Source: Escherichia phage A7_1
Direction: 5' to 3' (one strand)
DNA length: 64,000 nucleotides
Sequence record: OP795442
The position numbers and the translations under genes are program-made. Below are positions 1-45,396 of this stretch, one piece after another. The notes below the pieces were generated by a model, which saw nothing but the letters and a program-made list of their open reading frames with translations, made no database searches and had not been told where the DNA came from. Position 1 is the stretch's first letter. Each line of letters opens with the position of its first letter.

Positions 1-440
1 CGATTTTCGTTAGTGGAAAAGAAACCATTTTCCATGCGGCGAATCTCTTCTTTCATCACTTCCTGCATCGTTAATTTAAGGATTTCTTTGTTTAATTTTG
101 GCTTAACTTCACGAAGCTTGTCAAGAAGTTTTTCCATTTCTTCTTTTACTTTTTCTTCCTCATTTTCTATCTCTAATTGGTCCATTGCATCTTTACAAAC
201 ACAGCAATGACCTGTTACTCTTAAAATGTGATTTTGTATAGGTAGTGCTTTTCTACCGCAATACCCACAAAGAATAGAACCACCAGAGTTTCGAGCATCT
301 ACTGTCAATGTAGGTTTAGCCCCTTCTGCTTGAGAATCCCAAGTCTTTTTACCCTGGTAATCATACATAAAGAATTCGTAGGATCTTTCATCAACGTGGT
401 CTTCGAGCATATGTAAAGTTCGTGTATTGAAATGTTTCAT
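1..440 (-). CDS. hypothetical Cys-rich protein (3' end cut by window edge)
   Basis: ATG at 440-438 preceded by GAGGAG; frame stays open to position 1; CGYCG..HCCVC cysteine cluster; not in ORF track because it runs off the window. Confidence 0.5.
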   Translation of the reverse strand, partial: MKHFNTRTLHMLEDHVDERSYEFFMYDYQGKKTWDSQAEGAKPTLTVDARNSGGSILCGYCGRKALPIQNHILRVTGHCCVCKDAMDQLEIENEEEKVKEEMEKLLDKLREVKPKLNKEILKLTMQEVMKEEIRRMENGFFSTNEN

Positions 441-560
441 TTTTAACTCCTCGTCGTTTGTATGTGCTAACTATACGAGAACTTGAGGGGAAGATCAATA
501 CTTGATTTGCATTTTATTTTCATTATACTGTGCACATCTAAAACGAGAAGGAGATAACAA

Positions 561-1124
561 ATGAGTCAAGATAAAGAGTTAGCCATTGCGATATCCGTAG
601 CTGCTTCTGCCCATGTTGACCAAGTAGATAAAGGGGGGAATATCTATATTCTTCATCCTTTGCAGGTGATGCAAACATTGCAGCAAAAGGGAAGGGGAGA
701 TTTAATGGCAGCAGGAGTTTTGCATGATGTGATTGAAGATACTGAAATCACTATGGAACACCTCTTTAAAAAGGGGATTTCAGAAAGAACCTTAGTGATT
801 GTCGATGCAGTGACAAAGAAACGTAAGCAATCTTCATCTGATTACCTAGAGGGGATTTTAGAGAGTGAGGGTGCTTGTCATGTTAAGCTTGCGGATCTTA
901 AACACAACTTAGATATTCTGCGAACTTGTAGCACCACAGAAAAAGACTTGCAACGGGTCAGGAAGTATGTAACAATGCACTTGTTGATTACGGAGATGGT
1001 TGATTGGTATGAAAGTATCGGAAGGTATCTCGATTATTGTGATTCTTTTGCCTATTCTAGCTATCTCGACGAACGTAAAGAATTTGTTCAGAAACTTATT
1101 AAAAAATGGAAGGAGTTTAAATGA
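561..1124 (+). CDS. HD-domain protein, small alarmone ((p)ppGpp) hydrolase-like
   Basis: 187 aa; SD AAGGAG; motifs ..YILHPLQV.. and ..VLHDVIEDT.. match SpoT/Mesh1 hydrolase HD signature. Confidence 0.65.
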   Translation: MSQDKELAIAISVAASAHVDQVDKGGNIYILHPLQVMQTLQQKGRGDLMAAGVLHDVIEDTEITMEHLFKKGISERTLVIVDAVTKKRKQSSSDYLEGILESEGACHVKLADLKHNLDILRTCSTTEKDLQRVRKYVTMHLLITEMVDWYESIGRYLDYCDSFAYSSYLDERKEFVQKLIKKWKEFK

Positions 1125-1654
1125 AAAAGGTATTGAGTATTGAGCCGTTCACAACAACATACTTTGACGATTTGGAACGTCATGGTGATTATGGGGTACA
1201 AGACGCTGATGGTTGGAAAGAATTCCCTGAAGAAACAAAAGGTGACATTACAAAGCTCGGTTGTAAGATCAATGGATCTGAACCAAAAGGTGTTTACACC
1301 ATGTTTTCTTTCCTTGAAGCTATGAACCCAACGTACAAGGGAGATCGGCAATTTGGTTTTTCTTTTGCATCATTCCTTACTTGTAGCTGTGGTCATGGGG
1401 GTTGTGCAGGCTATCATGATAATGTGGTTATTCGACGTAAAAAGAATACCGTGATGGTCATGGGTAAAAAGGGAGATGGTTATGACGAAGGTGTTGTATT
1501 GACAGGTGAATCTGTTGTATACTTCGATAAAAAGCAGTGGGACGGTGTTCTAGAACACTACCTTAAACTCTTCAAAGAAAATCCTGATGGTGTTTTTGAA
1601 GATGCGGGTTTTATGTTTACTGGTCGTTGGGGGACTAAAAATTTTTCAAAATAA
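1121..1654 (+). CDS. hypothetical protein
   Basis: 177 aa ORF, SD GGAGG, start overlaps upstream stop. Confidence 0.6.
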   Translation: MKKVLSIEPFTTTYFDDLERHGDYGVQDADGWKEFPEETKGDITKLGCKINGSEPKGVYTMFSFLEAMNPTYKGDRQFGFSFASFLTCSCGHGGCAGYHDNVVIRRKKNTVMVMGKKGDGYDEGVVLTGESVVYFDKKQWDGVLEHYLKLFKENPDGVFEDAGFMFTGRWGTKNFSK

Positions 1655-1666
1655 TTTAAAAACTTG

Positions 1667-1694
1667 TTGACTTAAGAAATAGAAAAGATATACT
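1667..1694 (+). promoter_or_regulatory. sigma70-like promoter TTGACT-N16-TATACT
   Basis: hexamers read directly; followed by TATCACAT element; upstream of ATPase gene. Confidence 0.45.
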
Positions 1695-1724
1695 TATCAC
1701 ATCAAAAACAAGAGGAGATATAAA

Positions 1725-2954
1725 ATGCAAGCAACTTATCAACGTATGGACCAAACCATGTTCAAAAAACGTATCAGTGTTCGTGATATGGAATCACTGA
1801 TTCGCCTAGGAGCTTCCATCGGAAAGACCGTATTCTTTTTTGGTGGCGCTGGTCTTGGTAAGTCTGAAAAAGTAAAACAGATCGCTGATTCCATGTTCCC
1901 ACATCGTGTAGGTAATAACCTTTGTGATGTTCGTCTGTCGGATAAAGAGCCACAAGATATCGCAGGTATTCCGATTCCGATCTCTTATCCAGATCCGAAA
2001 ACTGGTAAAGAAGTCACTCGTACCGTATATGCAGTTCCAAACTTTTGGCCTACTGATCCTGATTGGGAAGGTATCGTGTTCTTGGATGAACTGCCAAATG
2101 CACCATTGGGCACTCAGCACTCTGCATATCAGGTTATTCTTGATCACGTTGCAGGTGAGCATAAGTTCCCGAAAGGTACTGTGTTTGTAGGTGCAGGTAA
2201 CCGTGATACTGATGGAGCAGGGACTACTTCTATGCCTGGCCCATTGGTTAACCGTATGATCATTGCAGAAGTTGATTATAATCTGGATGTGTGGATCGAA
2301 GACTATGCGATTCCGTTCCGTCTGCACCCGAACATTATTGGTTTCTTGAAGCAGTTTCCAGAGCATTTCTATACTGGTGACGTAGAAAACCGAAGTACTC
2401 CGGTTTATTCATCTCCTCGTCAATGGAAAACAGCATCTGACATTCTGTACAAGTATGATGCGGGTGAGATTAATGAATTTATCGCAGAGGTTGCTCTTGC
2501 AGGTACAGTTGGTGAAGGCCTGGAAGTACAGATCCTTGCTTATCATTTACGTGCTAAAGAACTTCCTCCGATTGAAGATATCTTTAGTGGTGCAGTTGAA
2601 GAACATAAACTTGATCGCAGTAAGAACGACCTTGTTTACGTCCTGGCACAAACTGGCCTTCGTCGCATGGAAGATGAGGTTATGGATAATGACATGACGG
2701 ATGATAAGTTCCTTGAACGTGCAGGTAACTTCCTTACGTTCATGTACAATAACTATTATGCAAACAACAAGGATACGATGATTGCTTTGATCTTGGGCGT
2801 GTTCCGTGGTCCAAACGATAAGCCATCTATCTTGACTGTTAACCCGAAACGTCAGAAAATGATTCCGCTTATGCGTAAGAGTTGCCCGACTGTTTCTGCC
2901 GCAGTTATGGAATACATGACTCGATATGGTCAACTGATTAAAGAATTCGAATAA
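1725..2954 (+). CDS. AAA+ ATPase, MoxR/CobS-like
   Basis: 409 aa; Walker A GGAGLGKS, Walker B IVFLDELPNA; SD AAGAGGAG. Confidence 0.8.
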   Translation: MQATYQRMDQTMFKKRISVRDMESLIRLGASIGKTVFFFGGAGLGKSEKVKQIADSMFPHRVGNNLCDVRLSDKEPQDIAGIPIPISYPDPKTGKEVTRTVYAVPNFWPTDPDWEGIVFLDELPNAPLGTQHSAYQVILDHVAGEHKFPKGTVFVGAGNRDTDGAGTTSMPGPLVNRMIIAEVDYNLDVWIEDYAIPFRLHPNIIGFLKQFPEHFYTGDVENRSTPVYSSPRQWKTASDILYKYDAGEINEFIAEVALAGTVGEGLEVQILAYHLRAKELPPIEDIFSGAVEEHKLDRSKNDLVYVLAQTGLRRMEDEVMDNDMTDDKFLERAGNFLTFMYNNYYANNKDTMIALILGVFRGPNDKPSILTVNPKRQKMIPLMRKSCPTVSAAVMEYMTRYGQLIKEFE

Positions 2955-2958
2955 TCTC

Positions 2959-2987
2959 TTGACAACGAAAAACAGTTAACTTAATAT
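2959..2987 (+). promoter_or_regulatory. promoter-like TTGACA-N17-TAATAT
   Basis: hexamers read directly; immediately followed by terminator hairpin. Confidence 0.3.
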
Positions 2988-2992
2988 AAGGG

Positions 2993-3017
2993 CATCTCGA
3001 AAGAGGTGTCCTTTTTT
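2993..3017 (+). terminator. rho-independent terminator (GAAA tetraloop hairpin + T6)
   Basis: CATCTC-GAAA-GAGGTG stem-loop followed by TCCTTTTTT. Confidence 0.55.
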
Positions 3018-3029
3018 AATTTGGAGAAA

Positions 3030-3524
3030 ATGATGGATTTCATAAAAGAAGGATTTTCTTTCGACCCCCTTGCAAAGTTTCTACTAAGGAGAAATGGAAG
3101 AGAAGTAGGGAATGTAGTAAAGAATCATAAAGGTTATGATAAAGACTATGTACGTGTAACATGGTCAAGGGAAAGGAAAAGAAAATCTGCGTATGCTCAC
3201 AGGATCATTTGGGAATTGCATTATGGCAAGATACCTGATGGTTATTGTATAGACCACATAAATGGAGATGGTTTGGATAACAGGATTGAAAACTTAAGAT
3301 TGGCAACTAAGAGTCAGAATGGTCAAAACAGGAAAAACAACAAGAATAAAAAGGATGGTCTTCCTAAAGGTGTAGTTATGAATCATGGAAAATACACAGG
3401 AAGGGTCTATGTAAATGGAAAAAGGTTACAGAAAATTAGTTCCGACCTTGACGAAATAGTCAATTGGTTGGAGAATAAACGTAAAGAAAATCACGGTGTG
3501 TTCATGAACAATGGAGAACAATAA
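3030..3524 (+). CDS. HNH homing endonuclease
   Basis: motif HRIIWELHYGKIP..IDHINGDGLDNRIENLR (HNH with AP2-like tail); ATG 3030 with GGAG SD; track start 3006 is GTG inside terminator. Confidence 0.75.
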   Translation: MMDFIKEGFSFDPLAKFLLRRNGREVGNVVKNHKGYDKDYVRVTWSRERKRKSAYAHRIIWELHYGKIPDGYCIDHINGDGLDNRIENLRLATKSQNGQNRKNNKNKKDGLPKGVVMNHGKYTGRVYVNGKRLQKISSDLDEIVNWLENKRKENHGVFMNNGEQ

Positions 3525-5062
3525 TGTCAAAAATTAGTCAAGAAGAAAAAGATATGATCGAAATGCAAGTCTTCGAAGCTGAACGTATTATTGAAGCTGC
3601 AAGTCTTCAACTTATGCGCTTCAAAGCGTTCTACGGGGTTATGCTTTCGTCTATGCCTGTTAAAAAGGCGACGGAGTGGTGTAGTACAATGGCGACTGAT
3701 GGACGTAACCTGTATTACCATCCAGAGTTCGTTGCAGGTATGACAGAAGAACGTAAAAAATTGGTACTTGAGCGACTTTCCAAATCTGAGAAAGATCCTA
3801 AAAAGCTGAAAGAGGGTATTGAGTTTATCAATGTCTTCTATCGTCGAAAGACTGCTCGTGAGCTTGCTCTTATTCTTGAGCACGAATGCGATCATGTGAT
3901 CTCTGATCACGCTTCTCGTGGTAAAGGGTTTAATCATGAGCTTTACAATATTGCAGCGGATCATCGTATCAATACAACGGCTGTGCTTATTCACCAGAAA
4001 GGGGATGAGCTAGGTAAAGCCTGGTTCCCTGCCGGAGAGAGAACGGTATTTGATAAAAATGCTGAATTTGGATTTATGGCCTGGTCTTACTGTGATTTCC
4101 GATTCAAAGATATGTATACTGAGCAGATCTATGAAATCCTGAATAAAGAGCAAGATGATAAAGAAAAATCCAAAGGGAAAGGTTCTGGTTCTGGAAGTGG
4201 AGAGGGTGATGGTGAAGAAGGTGGTCAAGGTCGTAAAGGTGTTGATCAACACATGGATCAGAATGGTGATCCAGAAGATTCAGAAGGTGATGATATCGAA
4301 GATGCACTGGGAATCGACCGTAAAGCGAAGCCTAAGCAAACAGCAGAGGAACGCCAGTATAACGATGGGGTTATGCGTCGAGCCATTGAGAATGCCGTAC
4401 AGGCAGCAGGAAGCGGTGCACCGGAAGATGCTCGTCGTTTTGTAGAAGCGGCGGGTAAACCAAAGATTAATTATCTTCGTTTGTTGCGTAAAACTATTGA
4501 ACGTCTGTTCAAAGATGATGTATCATATCGTCGTTTGTCACGCCGTAGTCACTCGTTAACTCGGACTCTTCGTGGCTCGGGTTACTTATCTGGACGACAG
4601 ACGATTGGTTTACCCTCAAAGAATAAACAGAAGACTATTCGTGCAGGTGTCTTCTTCGACGTATCTGGATCATTTAACGATGATCTGTTAAGACCAACAA
4701 TGCGTGAGATTCGTGGATTGTGTAATCTTTACGATGAGTTTGAAGTTACAATGGCTTGCTGGTCAACAAAGGTTGGTAACATTGAAACGTATACGAAGAA
4801 GAATGTGAATGAGATTGCTAACTACAAGATCAAGACCACATTTGGTACGGATGTTTCTTGTGTGTTCGAGGCATTAGATGAAATGAAAGACCCTATGGAT
4901 CAGATCATCATCTACACTGACGGTTACTTTGCTGATGTATCCCAAAAGAAAGATTGGGCCAAAAAGTATGGTAAGAATGTTCTTTGGATTATCCTGGGTC
5001 GTGGGTCTTCGTTCACCCCGCCTTTTGGCAAGGCAATTGATTTTGACAAGTATCTTAAATAA
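3524..5062 (+). CDS. von Willebrand factor A domain protein (CobT/ViaA-like partner of the ATPase)
   Basis: 512 aa; MIDAS-like FFDVSGSFND; acidic Gly/Ser-rich linker. Confidence 0.7.
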   Translation: MSKISQEEKDMIEMQVFEAERIIEAASLQLMRFKAFYGVMLSSMPVKKATEWCSTMATDGRNLYYHPEFVAGMTEERKKLVLERLSKSEKDPKKLKEGIEFINVFYRRKTARELALILEHECDHVISDHASRGKGFNHELYNIAADHRINTTAVLIHQKGDELGKAWFPAGERTVFDKNAEFGFMAWSYCDFRFKDMYTEQIYEILNKEQDDKEKSKGKGSGSGSGEGDGEEGGQGRKGVDQHMDQNGDPEDSEGDDIEDALGIDRKAKPKQTAEERQYNDGVMRRAIENAVQAAGSGAPEDARRFVEAAGKPKINYLRLLRKTIERLFKDDVSYRRLSRRSHSLTRTLRGSGYLSGRQTIGLPSKNKQKTIRAGVFFDVSGSFNDDLLRPTMREIRGLCNLYDEFEVTMACWSTKVGNIETYTKKNVNEIANYKIKTTFGTDVSCVFEALDEMKDPMDQIIIYTDGYFADVSQKKDWAKKYGKNVLWIILGRGSSFTPPFGKAIDFDKYLK

Positions 5063-5071
5063 GGAGGATCT

Positions 5072-5443
5072 TTGAGCGAGTATACTTACAAGTTGTCAGT
5101 CGGTAGGCGTGGAGTGGTTATGACTATCAACATGATTAATGAAAGTGCGGAGGCTGTGAAATGGTGGGCCTCCACCTTTAACGGGAAAGGTTTTACTTTA
5201 TCTCGTCATAAGGTTGGATCAGGAAAGCCAATAGATCTTGTCAAGGAGGACACTTTCTTGTATCCTGATCGTATTGCTGATGAAGATATTGATTTCCTAT
5301 CTGCTACGGTTGGTAGTTTGTTGGATGAGGAGCCAGACATTGTAAGGTTACTCTCTTTACTTACAGCAATGTGGTCAGCAGGTCATGATGAGGAAAGTAT
5401 GCATACGATGGTAAGGAATACGTTGAGACGTTGGTCTAAGTAA
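5072..5443 (+). CDS. hypothetical protein
   Basis: ORF 123 aa, TTG start 4 nt after AAGGAGG. Confidence 0.5.
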   Translation: MSEYTYKLSVGRRGVVMTINMINESAEAVKWWASTFNGKGFTLSRHKVGSGKPIDLVKEDTFLYPDRIADEDIDFLSATVGSLLDEEPDIVRLLSLLTAMWSAGHDEESMHTMVRNTLRRWSK

Positions 5444-5492
5444 CAACATTTCCTTTATGCCCATTTAGGCATACAATACTATATTAGATGAT

Positions 5493-5535
5493 AAACCCCT
5501 CAACCTGCTCGGTTGCTTCGACGGGGTTTATATAT
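5493..5535 (+). terminator. hairpin terminator
   Basis: AAACCCC..GGGGTTT imperfect long hairpin followed by TATATAT. Confidence 0.4.
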
Positions 5536-5602
5536 CTATTAAAAAATTAACCACACTCACATTCGTTCGGTACTTAATTTTTTAAGTCACCACAAAATTG
5601 TG

Positions 5603-5631
5603 TTGACACCACAATGAAACAGATGTAGAGT
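5603..5631 (+). promoter_or_regulatory. sigma70-like promoter TTGACA-N17-TAGAGT
   Basis: hexamers read directly. Confidence 0.4.
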
Positions 5632-5763
5632 TAACAAGAGAAGGAAAGTCAATTGGATAAGTTTTACATATACTGTCTAACATTGGGATTGATCTTCATG
5701 ATTGTTGGATCAGTGGGTAAAGTTTTACTCAATAGTTTTGGAATTTATTAAGAGGAGATCGTA

Positions 5764-6006
5764 ATGAGAGTACGTCAACATCGTGGTACATTGATCGAAA
5801 GTTTGAAAACTGTTAAACAGATTGAAGGTACAAAACAAGCTCTTGTGGATCATATCAACAAAGAGTTAGGTAAACCGTTTAACTTCTCTGTTGATTCGAT
5901 CAGTATTGTGGAAAAAGGAGTTGATGAGCGTATCAACTGGAACAACCATCTGATCCTGATTGATGGATTTGGTGTATTTGGTTATTGTGATCAACATCCT
6001 GTTTAA
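5764..6006 (+). CDS. hypothetical protein
   Basis: 80 aa ORF, SD AAGAGGAG. Confidence 0.55.
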   Translation: MRVRQHRGTLIESLKTVKQIEGTKQALVDHINKELGKPFNFSVDSISIVEKGVDERINWNNHLILIDGFGVFGYCDQHPV

Positions 6007-6126
6007 GAGGTGGTTATGGGTATTAAATGGTGGTTGTTTGTAGTTCCTGCAAATGATAATGCAGGTGGTGATGGTAAACGTGCAGTCGCACAAACCTATG
6101 TCTATGGTCGTCATTAAGGGGTTATT

Positions 6127-6534
6127 ATGGATGCTTTTTTGAGTATGGTGTTTGCACTAACAGTGGTTGATTGGGTATTTATCGGTATCTATTTACTGTG
6201 TATTCCTTTTGTGATCTGGTTTTACATTGACCTTTTGGCAGGTACTGGCAAGGTAAGTGGGATGGATTACTTCATGTTTATTGTTGTGATCCTGATGGGA
6301 CCTTTAGCTTTGTTGTCTTTCCTTATTGCAAACATTGTGGTAAGAGGGGGCGCTATCAAACAAGCCATTCTTTTAAAGGTGAGTGGAACTGATATCGGTA
6401 AGAAGATCATTGTCTGGAACATTACACGTAAGCTTAAGAAGACTGATACCAAATGGGTTAATCCTTTAGAGCGAGCCGTTCAGAAACGTCACAAAGTCTT
6501 AATAGGGAGAAAACATGGGAAATGCAATCCGTAA
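6127..6534 (+). CDS. hypothetical membrane protein
   Basis: 135 aa, three hydrophobic helices in N-terminal half. Confidence 0.55.
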   Translation: MDAFLSMVFALTVVDWVFIGIYLLCIPFVIWFYIDLLAGTGKVSGMDYFMFIVVILMGPLALLSFLIANIVVRGGAIKQAILLKVSGTDIGKKIIVWNITRKLKKTDTKWVNPLERAVQKRHKVLIGRKHGKCNP

Positions 6535-6678
6535 AATCAAGTGGAAGTTTTGGGAATACGCGCTGGTTGTTGCTGGATATCTTTTCGGATACGGTCATGA
6601 AGTGTACTATGGTGTGAAGCATAATCGAAACATGGCGTACTTCGCGTGGAAGTTTCCAGAGCGTAAGGAAAAGAAATG
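6515..6678 (+). CDS. hypothetical small protein
   Basis: 54 aa ORF below track cutoff; SD AGGGAGA; stop overlaps next start (ATGA). Confidence 0.35.
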
Positions 6679-43956: not shown

Positions 43957-45193
43957 TCTCCTTCAATTTGTCAAGATATTGTGTAACGTATCTTACTTTT
44001 ACATTTCGGATTCTATTCTTGATCTCTTCTGGACGTCCAGCAAATCTTTCAGAGATCTCTTTACTTTCTTTTGAGATTGCAACGCTGTTTTGAACAATCC
44101 CCGCCAGTGCTGAGAATAATACCAAAGGTTGAGTGTAGCTGTCAAACATTTTTTCAGGACCCCGACCACGAGCATCACAGATGCAAGCATCAATAAATTC
44201 AGAGAGGAATGCTTGGTCCTTTTCACCACGTAAGGCTACTAACAAGTCATAAACTTTCTTTGGCTTCATTTCTTTGATACGGTGAAGTCGTGTATGATGC
44301 TCAGTTACAGCTAAAGCCAACTTCTTCCAATTATTGGGGACACCAAAGCGATCACAAACTTGTTCAGTTAACTTGATACCATGTTCTTCGTGACCGTGCA
44401 GTTTACCCGTTACCCAATAAATACATTTACCTAAGTCGTGACACAGAACTGCCCACTTCACAGCTTCACTTGCACGAGTCGCCTGGGCATAATCCATGCA
44501 AAGTAAAGTGTGAACAAATGCATCACCTTCAGGATGGTGCTCCTTGGGTTGAACAACATCGTATAAATCCACAAGCTCAGGAAATTCCCCCAGTTGAGTC
44601 AACATACGGATCATTACCGAAGGTTTATTCATTTCTGACTGATCACTAAAGCATTTCTTAATCTCTGCAAATTTACGCTCTTTTGGTAATGCACTTAAAT
44701 CAACATCCTTGCACATTCCCCAAGTGTCAGGATCAATTGTAAACTCGCCTCCGTATCTGGCATGTAATCTGGCTAATCGATATACACGTAAAGGGTCTTC
44801 GATAAATGCCTTAATAGATACACAACGTAACCGACGAAGTTCAATATCAAGTGCACCACCGCAAGGGTCAATAATTTCACCCGTAGAAATATCCTTAGCG
44901 ATCGCATTAATGGTCAAATCTCTTCGCATCAGGTCTTGTTCGATTGTAACGTCTGGAGAGAACACAACTTCGAAGTCGTGATAACCAGGACCTGTTGATC
45001 TTTCTGTCCGAGCAAGAGCATACTCTTCCTTTGTCTCGGGGTGAAGGTACACAGGGAAAGCTGCACCAACCTTAGTAAATCCCTTCTCAATCATTTCTTC
45101 ATGGGTCGCTCCAACTACAACGTAGTCACGATCCTTGCTTTCAACACTCATTAGTTCATCGCGAACTGCACCACCTACCAAGTAAACTTTCAT
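43943..45193 (-). CDS. cca: CCA-adding tRNA nucleotidyltransferase with HD domain
   Basis: MKVYLVGGAVRD..DRD..YALARTER..RRDLTINA..DPLRV..CHDLGK closely follows E. coli Cca; ATG 45193 after AAGGA. Confidence 0.85.
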   Translation of the reverse strand: MKVYLVGGAVRDELMSVESKDRDYVVVGATHEEMIEKGFTKVGAAFPVYLHPETKEEYALARTERSTGPGYHDFEVVFSPDVTIEQDLMRRDLTINAIAKDISTGEIIDPCGGALDIELRRLRCVSIKAFIEDPLRVYRLARLHARYGGEFTIDPDTWGMCKDVDLSALPKERKFAEIKKCFSDQSEMNKPSVMIRMLTQLGEFPELVDLYDVVQPKEHHPEGDAFVHTLLCMDYAQATRASEAVKWAVLCHDLGKCIYWVTGKLHGHEEHGIKLTEQVCDRFGVPNNWKKLALAVTEHHTRLHRIKEMKPKKVYDLLVALRGEKDQAFLSEFIDACICDARGRGPEKMFDSYTQPLVLFSALAGIVQNSVAISKESKEISERFAGRPEEIKNRIRNVKVRYVTQYLDKLKESENG

Positions 45194-45231
45194 TCCTTCT
45201 TCTTCCATTCTTTCCAATTCTGCATGCCCGC

Positions 45232-45396
45232 TCATAGCCATCCCCTTTCTTTATACCCTTTTGTAAATCCTGATTCCCAATCTTGAAATTGCTCCGGCAT
45301 GGTGTTTGGATTATACGGGTTGTTTCTCTTGAACATCCCAAACTTGAATCCAGCGGCTCGGCCCTTCTCGTATGCTGAACTGCTTTTTCTTGTCAT
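45232..45396 (-). CDS. hypothetical small basic protein
   Basis: ATG 45396 after GAGGAG. Confidence 0.4.
   Translation of the reverse strand: MTRKSSSAYEKGRAAGFKFGMFKRNNPYNPNTMPEQFQDWESGFTKGYKERGWL

Follow-up and report, generated by a model that had tools for sequence, protein, structure and literature searches.

Free-standing endonucleases and the ATPase-VWA locus

The free-standing homing endonuclease genes of phage T4 are intergenic, and seven of them are promoter-less cassettes that harness upstream promoters; their products cleave away from the insertion site, with co-conversion of flanking markers, and the HNH enzymes MobA and MobE act by nicking (PMC2988022). We describe here a gene of similar character in Escherichia phage A7_1 (sequence record OP795442), of which we analyzed a stretch of 64,000 nucleotides, referred to below as the window. 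The gene encodes an HNH endonuclease and lies between the genes for an AAA-type ATPase (1725..2954) and a VWA-like protein (3524..5062), as the first-pass annotation of this DNA had proposed and as matches to Pfam HNH_3 and phrog_99 support. From comparison with related phages we estimate a probability of roughly 85% that it is a selfish, free-standing HNH homing endonuclease gene.

The locus resembles the T4 mob genes (MobA-MobE) in several respects: it is intergenic between conserved genes, it is a promoter-less cassette on a resident transcript, it pairs an HNH core with a separate and here putative C-terminal DNA-binding region, it is present or absent among relatives, and its likely target lies away from the insertion point, in a neighboring conserved gene, so that the interval between the two would be co-converted (PMC2988022). 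It differs in that there is no detectable sequence kinship beyond the HNH motif, in that the window phage belongs to the Vequintavirinae, and in the distance to the cut, which is hundreds to thousands of base pairs for the mob enzymes and would be about 100 bp here. In modeled structure the core is closest to that of I-HmuI (PDB 1U3E), a nicking HNH enzyme from Bacillus phage SPO1. A group I intron encodes I-HmuI, whose C-terminal domain is a helix-turn-helix, whereas the window protein is free-standing and has a C-terminus predicted to resemble AP2 and integrase DNA-binding domains. Magnani et al. in 2004 reportedly described HNH-AP2 phage endonucleases of HNH_3 plus AP2 architecture; the window protein may share this architecture, since in our model a three-strand-plus-helix domain that matches AP2 comes after its HNH_3 core.

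Orthologues at the identical site are CB7_109 and phiTE_059 (69% amino acid identity) and A5-4_50 (100%). The annotation as an HNH homing endonuclease was already known, from the record of phage A5-4 and from the paper on CB7, where CB7_109 is listed as a free-standing enzyme shared with phiTE and not with CR3 (PMC7344957). The published records of these orthologues hold no target, no base-resolution empty-site comparison and no co-conversion analysis. To them we add that the expression signals belong to the host gene, that the promoter-less element would preserve translation of the gene downstream, and that a target (VWA codons 32-37) and a resistant allele can be predicted from three replicate clades and a set of short footprints. 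Because A5-4 carries the HNH gene while A73 and W70, which grow on the same K-12 host, lack it, these phages would form a natural system for the study of intronless homing outside T4.

An exact empty site in related phages

We compared positions 1700-5100 with GenBank by megablast, and the whole window with A5-4. A5-4 (Vequintavirinae) aligned over the full length of the query at 98.9% identity, whereas the coliphages LTH01, A73, UPEC06 and W70 aligned at 94-97% identity with a query cover of 85-86%, in two pieces. Collinearity with A5-4 extends over the whole window, at 93-97.5% identity, and by its sequence the phage is a Septuagintavirus-type coliphage of the Vequintavirinae. Compared phage and contig sequences carry the labels L001-L032 below; several of them are metagenomic contigs. 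The gene and the segment that distinguishes the alleles are as follows.

3030..3524, plus strand: HNH endonuclease open reading frame (ORF), 164 amino acids from the ATG at 3030 or 163 from the ATG at 3033
3034..3522, plus strand: 489 bp missing from empty-site alleles, from an alignment of 2880-3620 with five GenBank relatives

In LTH01, A73, UPEC06 and W70 the ATPase and VWA genes are adjacent and exactly these 489 bp are missing; a shared ATGA/AATG leaves the boundaries uncertain by a few bases. In the alignment the insertion point of the HNH gene coincides with the VWA start codon. The gene has the ATPase stop (2954) on its upstream side and the VWA ATG (3524) on its downstream side, and the flanking ORFs are intact with or without it. 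The first-pass annotation had suggested a homing-endonuclease insertion and had proposed a search for relatives in which the two genes adjoin. Such relatives exist, with a clean 489-bp empty site and flanks of 94-98% nucleotide identity, so that the gene is not one that all relatives carry, and the existence of empty-site alleles supports the homing-endonuclease interpretation.

The distribution of the two states was followed by measuring the ATPase-VWA span in each record by tblastn with the two proteins joined end to end. It measures 3335 bp in A5-4, as against 2840-2846 bp in LTH01, A73, W70 and UPEC06. Occupied spans of about 3.33 kb are found in A5-4, phiTE, CB7, PcCB7V and P7_Pc, and spans of about 3.23 kb in DU_PP_I and DU_PP_IV. 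Empty spans of 2.84-2.86 kb occur in LTH01, A73, W70, UPEC06, CR3, CR8, PBES02 and CR9, and also in the F1M1E group, POP15/17/18, KaOmega and SSBI34; most other Vequintavirinae are empty at this site. The orthologues of the Pectobacterium certreviruses (67-69% amino acid identity) sit at the same point, after the hairpin and Shine-Dalgarno (SD) sequence and abutting the VWA start.

A large protein collection supplied further occupied loci, four (L017, L018, L029 and L030) at 96-100% amino acid identity and three (L019, L031 and L032) at 63%, as well as further empty loci (L022-L028). In all there are nine occupied loci, set against the four empty GenBank phages and several empty metagenomic contigs. 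Alleles with and without the HNH gene coexist among phages whose flanks are 97-100% identical. A scan of IMG/VR with the HNH protein gave one partial match, covering residues 50-115 at 61% identity (L016:3001-3177, on the 29-kb contig IMGVR_UViG_3300028840_001973); neither the empty junction nor the conserved VWA segment turned up when IMG/VR and the JGI metagenomes were scanned for exact patterns.

The HNH gene and its product

The ORF is real, although not of the 165 amino acids first assigned to it: its length is 164 or 163 residues depending on the start, the second ATG (3033) has the better SD spacing, and the TAA stop occupies 3522-3524. Its product matches Pfam HNH_3 (E=3.2e-23) and the phrog_99 family 'HNH endonuclease' (E=6e-44), and is 100% identical in amino acid sequence to A5-4_50, annotated as 'HNH homing endonuclease'. 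Two regions can be distinguished.

3192..3323, plus strand: predicted HNH (His-Me finger) catalytic core, residues 55-98, with D75-H76 at 3252-3257, N88 and N97
3360..3503, plus strand: C-terminal three-strand-plus-helix domain, AP2/integrase-DNA-binding-domain-like, putatively DNA-binding

D75, H76, N88 and N97 are invariant in a seven-sequence alignment and correspond to the motif of I-HmuI. The AlphaFold model computed from the same alignment (predicted local distance difference test score, pLDDT, 80.5) gave an I-HmuI-like fold for the core, and its C-terminal module matches plant and apicomplexan AP2 domains. In a sequence search of the PDB the HNH protein reached I-HmuI at E=0.13 only, and NCBIfam gave no match for the HNH, ATPase or VWA protein.

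The gene is compositionally foreign. AGR accounts for 12 of its 14 arginine codons and its GC fraction is 0.358, the most extreme values among the 37 ORFs of at least 150 amino acids in the window; in the two neighboring genes AGR accounts for 0 of 21 and 2 of 34 arginine codons. The protein is maintained under purifying selection, with a ratio of nonsynonymous to synonymous divergence (dN/dS) of 0.08 against the 96%-identical L017 allele. A tblastn search found no HNH paralogue elsewhere in the window, and the annotation of A5-4 lists no further gene of the HNH family in the matching 50 kb.

An intron-encoded origin was considered and set aside: Rfam gave no intron match at E<=1 in 2700-3800, and neither neighboring gene is interrupted. 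In the same database SIB_RNA matched over the promoter and hairpin at 20 bits versus a gathering score of 56; this sub-threshold match was treated as chance.

An HNH motif might also indicate a packaging accessory, a terminase-associated nuclease that cuts concatemers as in HK97-like phages, and such roles of some HNH proteins are mentioned in the CB7 paper (PMC7344957). The motif is all that recommends this explanation here. The gene is not beside terminase or portal genes, its product is of the HNH_3/I-HmuI-like type with an AP2-like domain, and the closest relatives package normally without it; we regard a packaging role as extremely improbable.

A tract of the VWA gene linked to the HNH gene

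Comparison of occupied and empty loci located a segment that travels with the HNH gene. Fixed differences between HNH-positive and HNH-negative alleles were counted on gene-by-gene alignments.

3524..3613, plus strand: HNH-linked tract, comprising VWA nucleotides 1-90 and inherited together with the HNH gene in every case

In coliphage sub-clade 1 (6 HNH-positive versus 5 HNH-negative loci), all 19 fixed differences in the 2712 bp compared fall within VWA nucleotides 1-90 (P~1e-27). The metagenomic sub-clade 2 has 21 of 36 fixed differences within nucleotides 1-105 (P~7e-21), and Certrevirus 13 of 16 within nucleotides 1-125 (P~2e-15). On the other side of the insertion, 1200 bp of the ATPase gene in the coliphage alleles contain no fixed difference. 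Nucleotide identity between HNH-positive and empty alleles is 75-76% in VWA nucleotides 1-105 and 94-98% elsewhere, and synonymous divergence (dS) is 1.79 in the tract versus 0.17 in the rest of the gene. This ten-fold higher value points to a segment of much greater age, acquired from elsewhere and moving together with the HNH gene, and a one-sided tract of about 90-105 bp, linked to the gene in three clades, is what co-conversion of flanking markers would be expected to leave.

The tract is also visible in the protein. HNH-positive loci have VWA N-termini of the types MSKISQEEKD... or MKVSEKEL..., and HNH-negative loci have MAKLTIEESN... or MIDQKEKD...; the peptide type correctly foretold an HNH gene in three of three new contigs before their context was seen.

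With the compositional bias, the homing-type fold, the empty sites and the decayed copies described below, the linked tract bears out the suggestion of a homing-endonuclease insertion, and on sequence the locus has the defining features of a free-standing homing endonuclease. Several points weigh against this. The homing activity of the enzyme and of its orthologues is a reading of sequence comparisons; the loci are few, phylogenetically related to each other and in several cases metagenomic; and these phages are mosaic everywhere, so that ordinary recombination might in principle produce both the linked tracts and the short patches. The mosaicism is block-wise and pervasive: comparison of window positions 1-6600 with L001-L005 shows 100-bp intervals that switch between 82-90% and 100% identity, with the blocks placed differently in each coliphage relative. 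Furthermore, the divergence of the HNH proteins between clades (63-69% amino acid identity) equals or exceeds that of the flanking genes (65-82%), which would also fit vertical descent with repeated loss.

The last two points, and the existence of decayed copies, are what would be expected if the HNH gene were ancestral at this site, immobile, and only ever lost by deletion or recombination, the tract being old lineage structure. Other observations are harder to accommodate. The empty sites are exact and have an intact, different VWA start, which a deletion would have to regenerate every time; the two states coexist among phages with nearly identical flanks; the tract lies on one side only, stops at the same codons in each of the three clades and shows the ten-fold dS; the gene is under purifying selection; and resistant-type patches are found in HNH-less backgrounds, as described next. 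We therefore think it improbable that the present distribution reflects loss alone, and favor a homing endonuclease gene that carries its flanking tract with it.

A candidate target site in the VWA gene

The VWA gene is the probable target gene of the endonuclease. Just beyond the linked tract lies a short segment whose form differs between most occupied and empty loci.

3619..3634, plus strand: putative recognition/cleavage region in its resistant form, VWA codons 32-37, CGC TTC AAA GCG TTC TAC

In the coliphage-type clades residue 35 of the VWA protein is alanine in all nine HNH-positive loci, each with CGC/CGA TTC AAA GCG/GCA; the HNH-negative loci have proline in seven cases and alanine in four (Fisher P=0.005, uncorrected for relatedness). 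Proline is found in every HNH-less sequence examined except those that carry a patch. L022, which lacks the HNH gene, differs from LTH01 only at +96, +99, +103 and +105 in 581 bp around the site, and HNH-less L028 differs from L027 only at +102, +105, +109, +111 and +117 in 1081 bp. The new bases in both are those of the HNH-positive sequence CGC TTC AAA GCG (TTC TAC), synonymous positions included, and form isolated patches of 10-16 bp. The HNH-less L025/26 have the proline-to-alanine change as GCA, the same codon as in the sub-clade-2 HNH-positive allele.

We propose, as somewhat better than an even bet, that the enzyme recognizes or cuts the HNH-less allele at the equivalent of 3619-3634. 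In the mechanism that this suggests, homing would follow the co-infection of one cell by an HNH-positive phage and a relative without the gene. There the enzyme would nick or cut the HNH-less allele in the 5' end of the VWA gene, most likely in codons 32-37 (MRFK-P-FY), which lie about 95-110 bp farther downstream than the insertion point. Repair by recombination with the HNH-positive genome would then copy the resistant site, the interval of about 90 bp and the HNH gene, which would amount to intronless homing with co-conversion. The HNH-positive genome would be immune because its own site differs (CGC TTC AAA GCG, Pro35 to Ala). A cut in codons 32-37 followed by repair would explain why positions +1 to +90 are always linked to the gene, why the linkage stops at the patch and why the upstream flank is free. 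Shorter repair tracts would give HNH-less phages that carry the resistant patch alone.

Whether the patches in L022, L028 and L025/26 are in fact footprints of endonuclease attacks repaired by short-tract conversion is less certain than the site itself, and we put this forward tentatively. Their recurrence at one 16-bp spot in separate backgrounds makes chance unlikely. Against the proposal, ordinary mosaic recombination, which is common in these phages, could account for any single patch, and the Certrevirus HNH-positive loci keep Pro35 and differ from HNH-less ones at the same neighboring codons instead (AGG TAT versus CGN TAC, and valine to isoleucine four codons on), so that the proposed site lacks one universal change. 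If the proposal is true, wild gut-phage populations record an ongoing contest in which the endonuclease both spreads itself and 'vaccinates' competitors, passing on only its resistant target, and the target could be read directly from metagenomes without need of biochemistry.

Expression signals at the insertion site

The first-pass annotation had credited the HNH gene with a promoter-like sequence and a terminator of its own. Both signals exist, and neither is the gene's own. Four elements are relevant.

2959..2987, plus strand: sigma-70-like promoter, TTGACA-17-TAATAT (pattern scan, 10/12)
2988..3019, plus strand: stem-loop and T-run, with an 11-bp stem (hairpin 2988-3013, minimum free energy -16.5 kcal/mol, z=-3.4)
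3023..3026, plus strand: GGAG Shine-Dalgarno sequence, originally that of the VWA gene and now that of the HNH gene (read from sequence)
3513..3516, plus strand: replacement GGAG Shine-Dalgarno sequence for the VWA gene, within the final codons of the HNH gene and 7 nt ahead of the VWA ATG

The 3' end of the ATPase gene, the promoter, the hairpin, the T-run and the GGAG are identical in the window, A5-4 and the four HNH-less relatives LTH01, A73, UPEC06 and W70. All three signals (promoter, hairpin and SD) precede the HNH gene and are base-identical in the empty alleles, so they belong to the VWA gene. The same promoter-hairpin-SD module fronts the VWA gene in CR3, CR9, F1M1E, POP15, SSBI34 and metagenomic relatives, with differing hairpin sequences, and a sigma70-like early promoter shared in the genus is described in the CB7 paper (PMC7344957). 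The HNH gene is thus a promoter-less cassette that uses the resident VWA promoter, 5' stem-loop and SD, and the resident promoter would now drive both HNH and VWA. The spacing changes from GGAG-N8-ATG(VWA) in the empty alleles to GGAG-N3/N6-ATG(HNH) in the window.

Nothing terminator-like follows the HNH gene, whose TAA (3522-3524) overlaps the VWA ATG (3524-3526) in the stop/start overlap TAATG, 3522-3526. The replacement SD in the last HNH codons would preserve VWA expression. Equivalents of this embedded SD are kept in other occupied loci, as GGAGG-N5-ATG in CB7/phiTE and GAGGG-N7-ATG in L019.

Among the resident signals, the -10 hexamer abuts a strong stem-loop and T-run, followed by the SD (window 2959-3026; L011-L015 and L023-L028). 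This promoter-terminator overlap is kept across the subfamily while the stem sequence changes, and in SSBI34 the stem arms are swapped relative to the window. The stem-loop would terminate read-through from the ATPase gene and would form a 5' stem-loop on transcripts from the adjacent promoter.

Decayed copies and other insertions near the ATPase gene

Not all copies of the HNH gene are intact. The DU_PP_IV copy is dead: a deletion of 107 bp has shifted its frame and taken out residues that immediately precede the catalytic DH motif. The PcCB7V copy is dead through a 1-bp deletion near the 5' end. P7_Pc has an HNH_3 gene (L010:1533-2030) at the other, 5' end of the ATPase-VWA spacer, overlapping the ATPase stop, with the resident promoter, hairpin and SD remaining downstream of it. 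Its product is 39% identical to the window HNH over 85 amino acids; the two genes are unrelated, and that of P7_Pc represents an independent invasion of the same spacer. The neighborhood of the ATPase gene looks like a hot spot for HNH insertions.

PcCB7V has another HNH_3 gene, L008:1215-1700, directly upstream of the ATPase gene, with a weak Pfam match to AP2 (E 0.017). In CB7 and in the window its position is taken by a hypothetical gene of 176-177 amino acids.

These copies bear on whether the HNH protein has been domesticated, as a component or regulator of the ATPase-VWA system (for example, a MoxR-VWA-type conflict effector) or as an anti-phage weapon that benefits its carrier. Translational coupling to VWA through the stop/start overlap and embedded SD, purifying selection, and the same position in several genera would all suit such a role, and a free-standing endonuclease can be of advantage to its carrier through marker exclusion (PMC2988022). 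Yet in most phages that have the ATPase and VWA genes, among them jumbo phages and the closest relatives, no gene intervenes between the two, HNH copies decay while the neighboring genes stay, and the different HNH gene of P7_Pc at the other end of the spacer fits opportunistic invaders. A competitive benefit to the carrier is compatible with a homing endonuclease gene rather than a rival to it. We consider domestication very unlikely, slightly more so than a history of loss alone. The stricter version, in which the HNH protein is an obligatory partner of the pair, was rejected: the pair occurs without it in most phages.

Neighboring genes and additional observations

The genes on either side of the element form a pair that is adjacent in 353 phage records, jumbo phages included.

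1725..2954, plus strand: AAA-type ATPase, 409 amino acids, upstream host gene, outside the mobile element (phrog_1297 'ATPase', E=2.8e-100)
3524..5062, plus strand: HExxH metallopeptidase-like and VWA-like protein, 512 amino acids, downstream host gene (DUF2201_N and DUF2201)

The pair had been described initially as MoxR/CobS-CobT-like, an AAA+ ATPase with a VWA partner, of which the VWA-like domain is confirmed (PF09967, E=7.9e-8, next to PF13203, E=6.5e-25) and the MoxR/CobS-CobT-like character of the ATPase is not. The ATPase sequence shows a Walker A motif (GGAGLGKS) and a Walker B motif (VFLDE); it had no Pfam match even at E<=10, none in NCBIfam and none among PDB sequences at E<=0.01, and 'MoxR', given in several records, is for this reason best regarded as a label of the depositors. 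Exact look-up of the ATPase protein returned A5-4 only, and that of the window's 177-amino acid protein upstream returned no record.

The VWA protein is identical to UZZ64014.1 of Escherichia phage A7_1. Its metallopeptidase-like and VWA-like halves are joined by an acidic, Gly/Ser-rich, low-complexity linker (about 4150-4310, residues ~210-262), whose length varies slightly and in frame among relatives, for example by 6 bp in UPEC06. In PHROG, phrog_1314 labels this metallopeptidase-VWA (DUF2201) family 'HNH endonuclease', and RefSeq does likewise for CR3, CR8, CR9, PBES02, phiTE_060, GAP32, RaK2 and K64-1. Family members so labeled include window 3524-5062, L011:1607-3163, L014:1594-3147 and L007:3491-5041. 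As the VWA protein has HExxH and a VWA-like domain and no HNH match in Pfam, this looks like a propagated mis-annotation.

Elsewhere in the window, the only stretches that do not align with A5-4 by megablast in the first 50 kb are 27346-27660 and 45193-45389. Both represent small insertions or replacements; the genome is otherwise collinear with A5-4.

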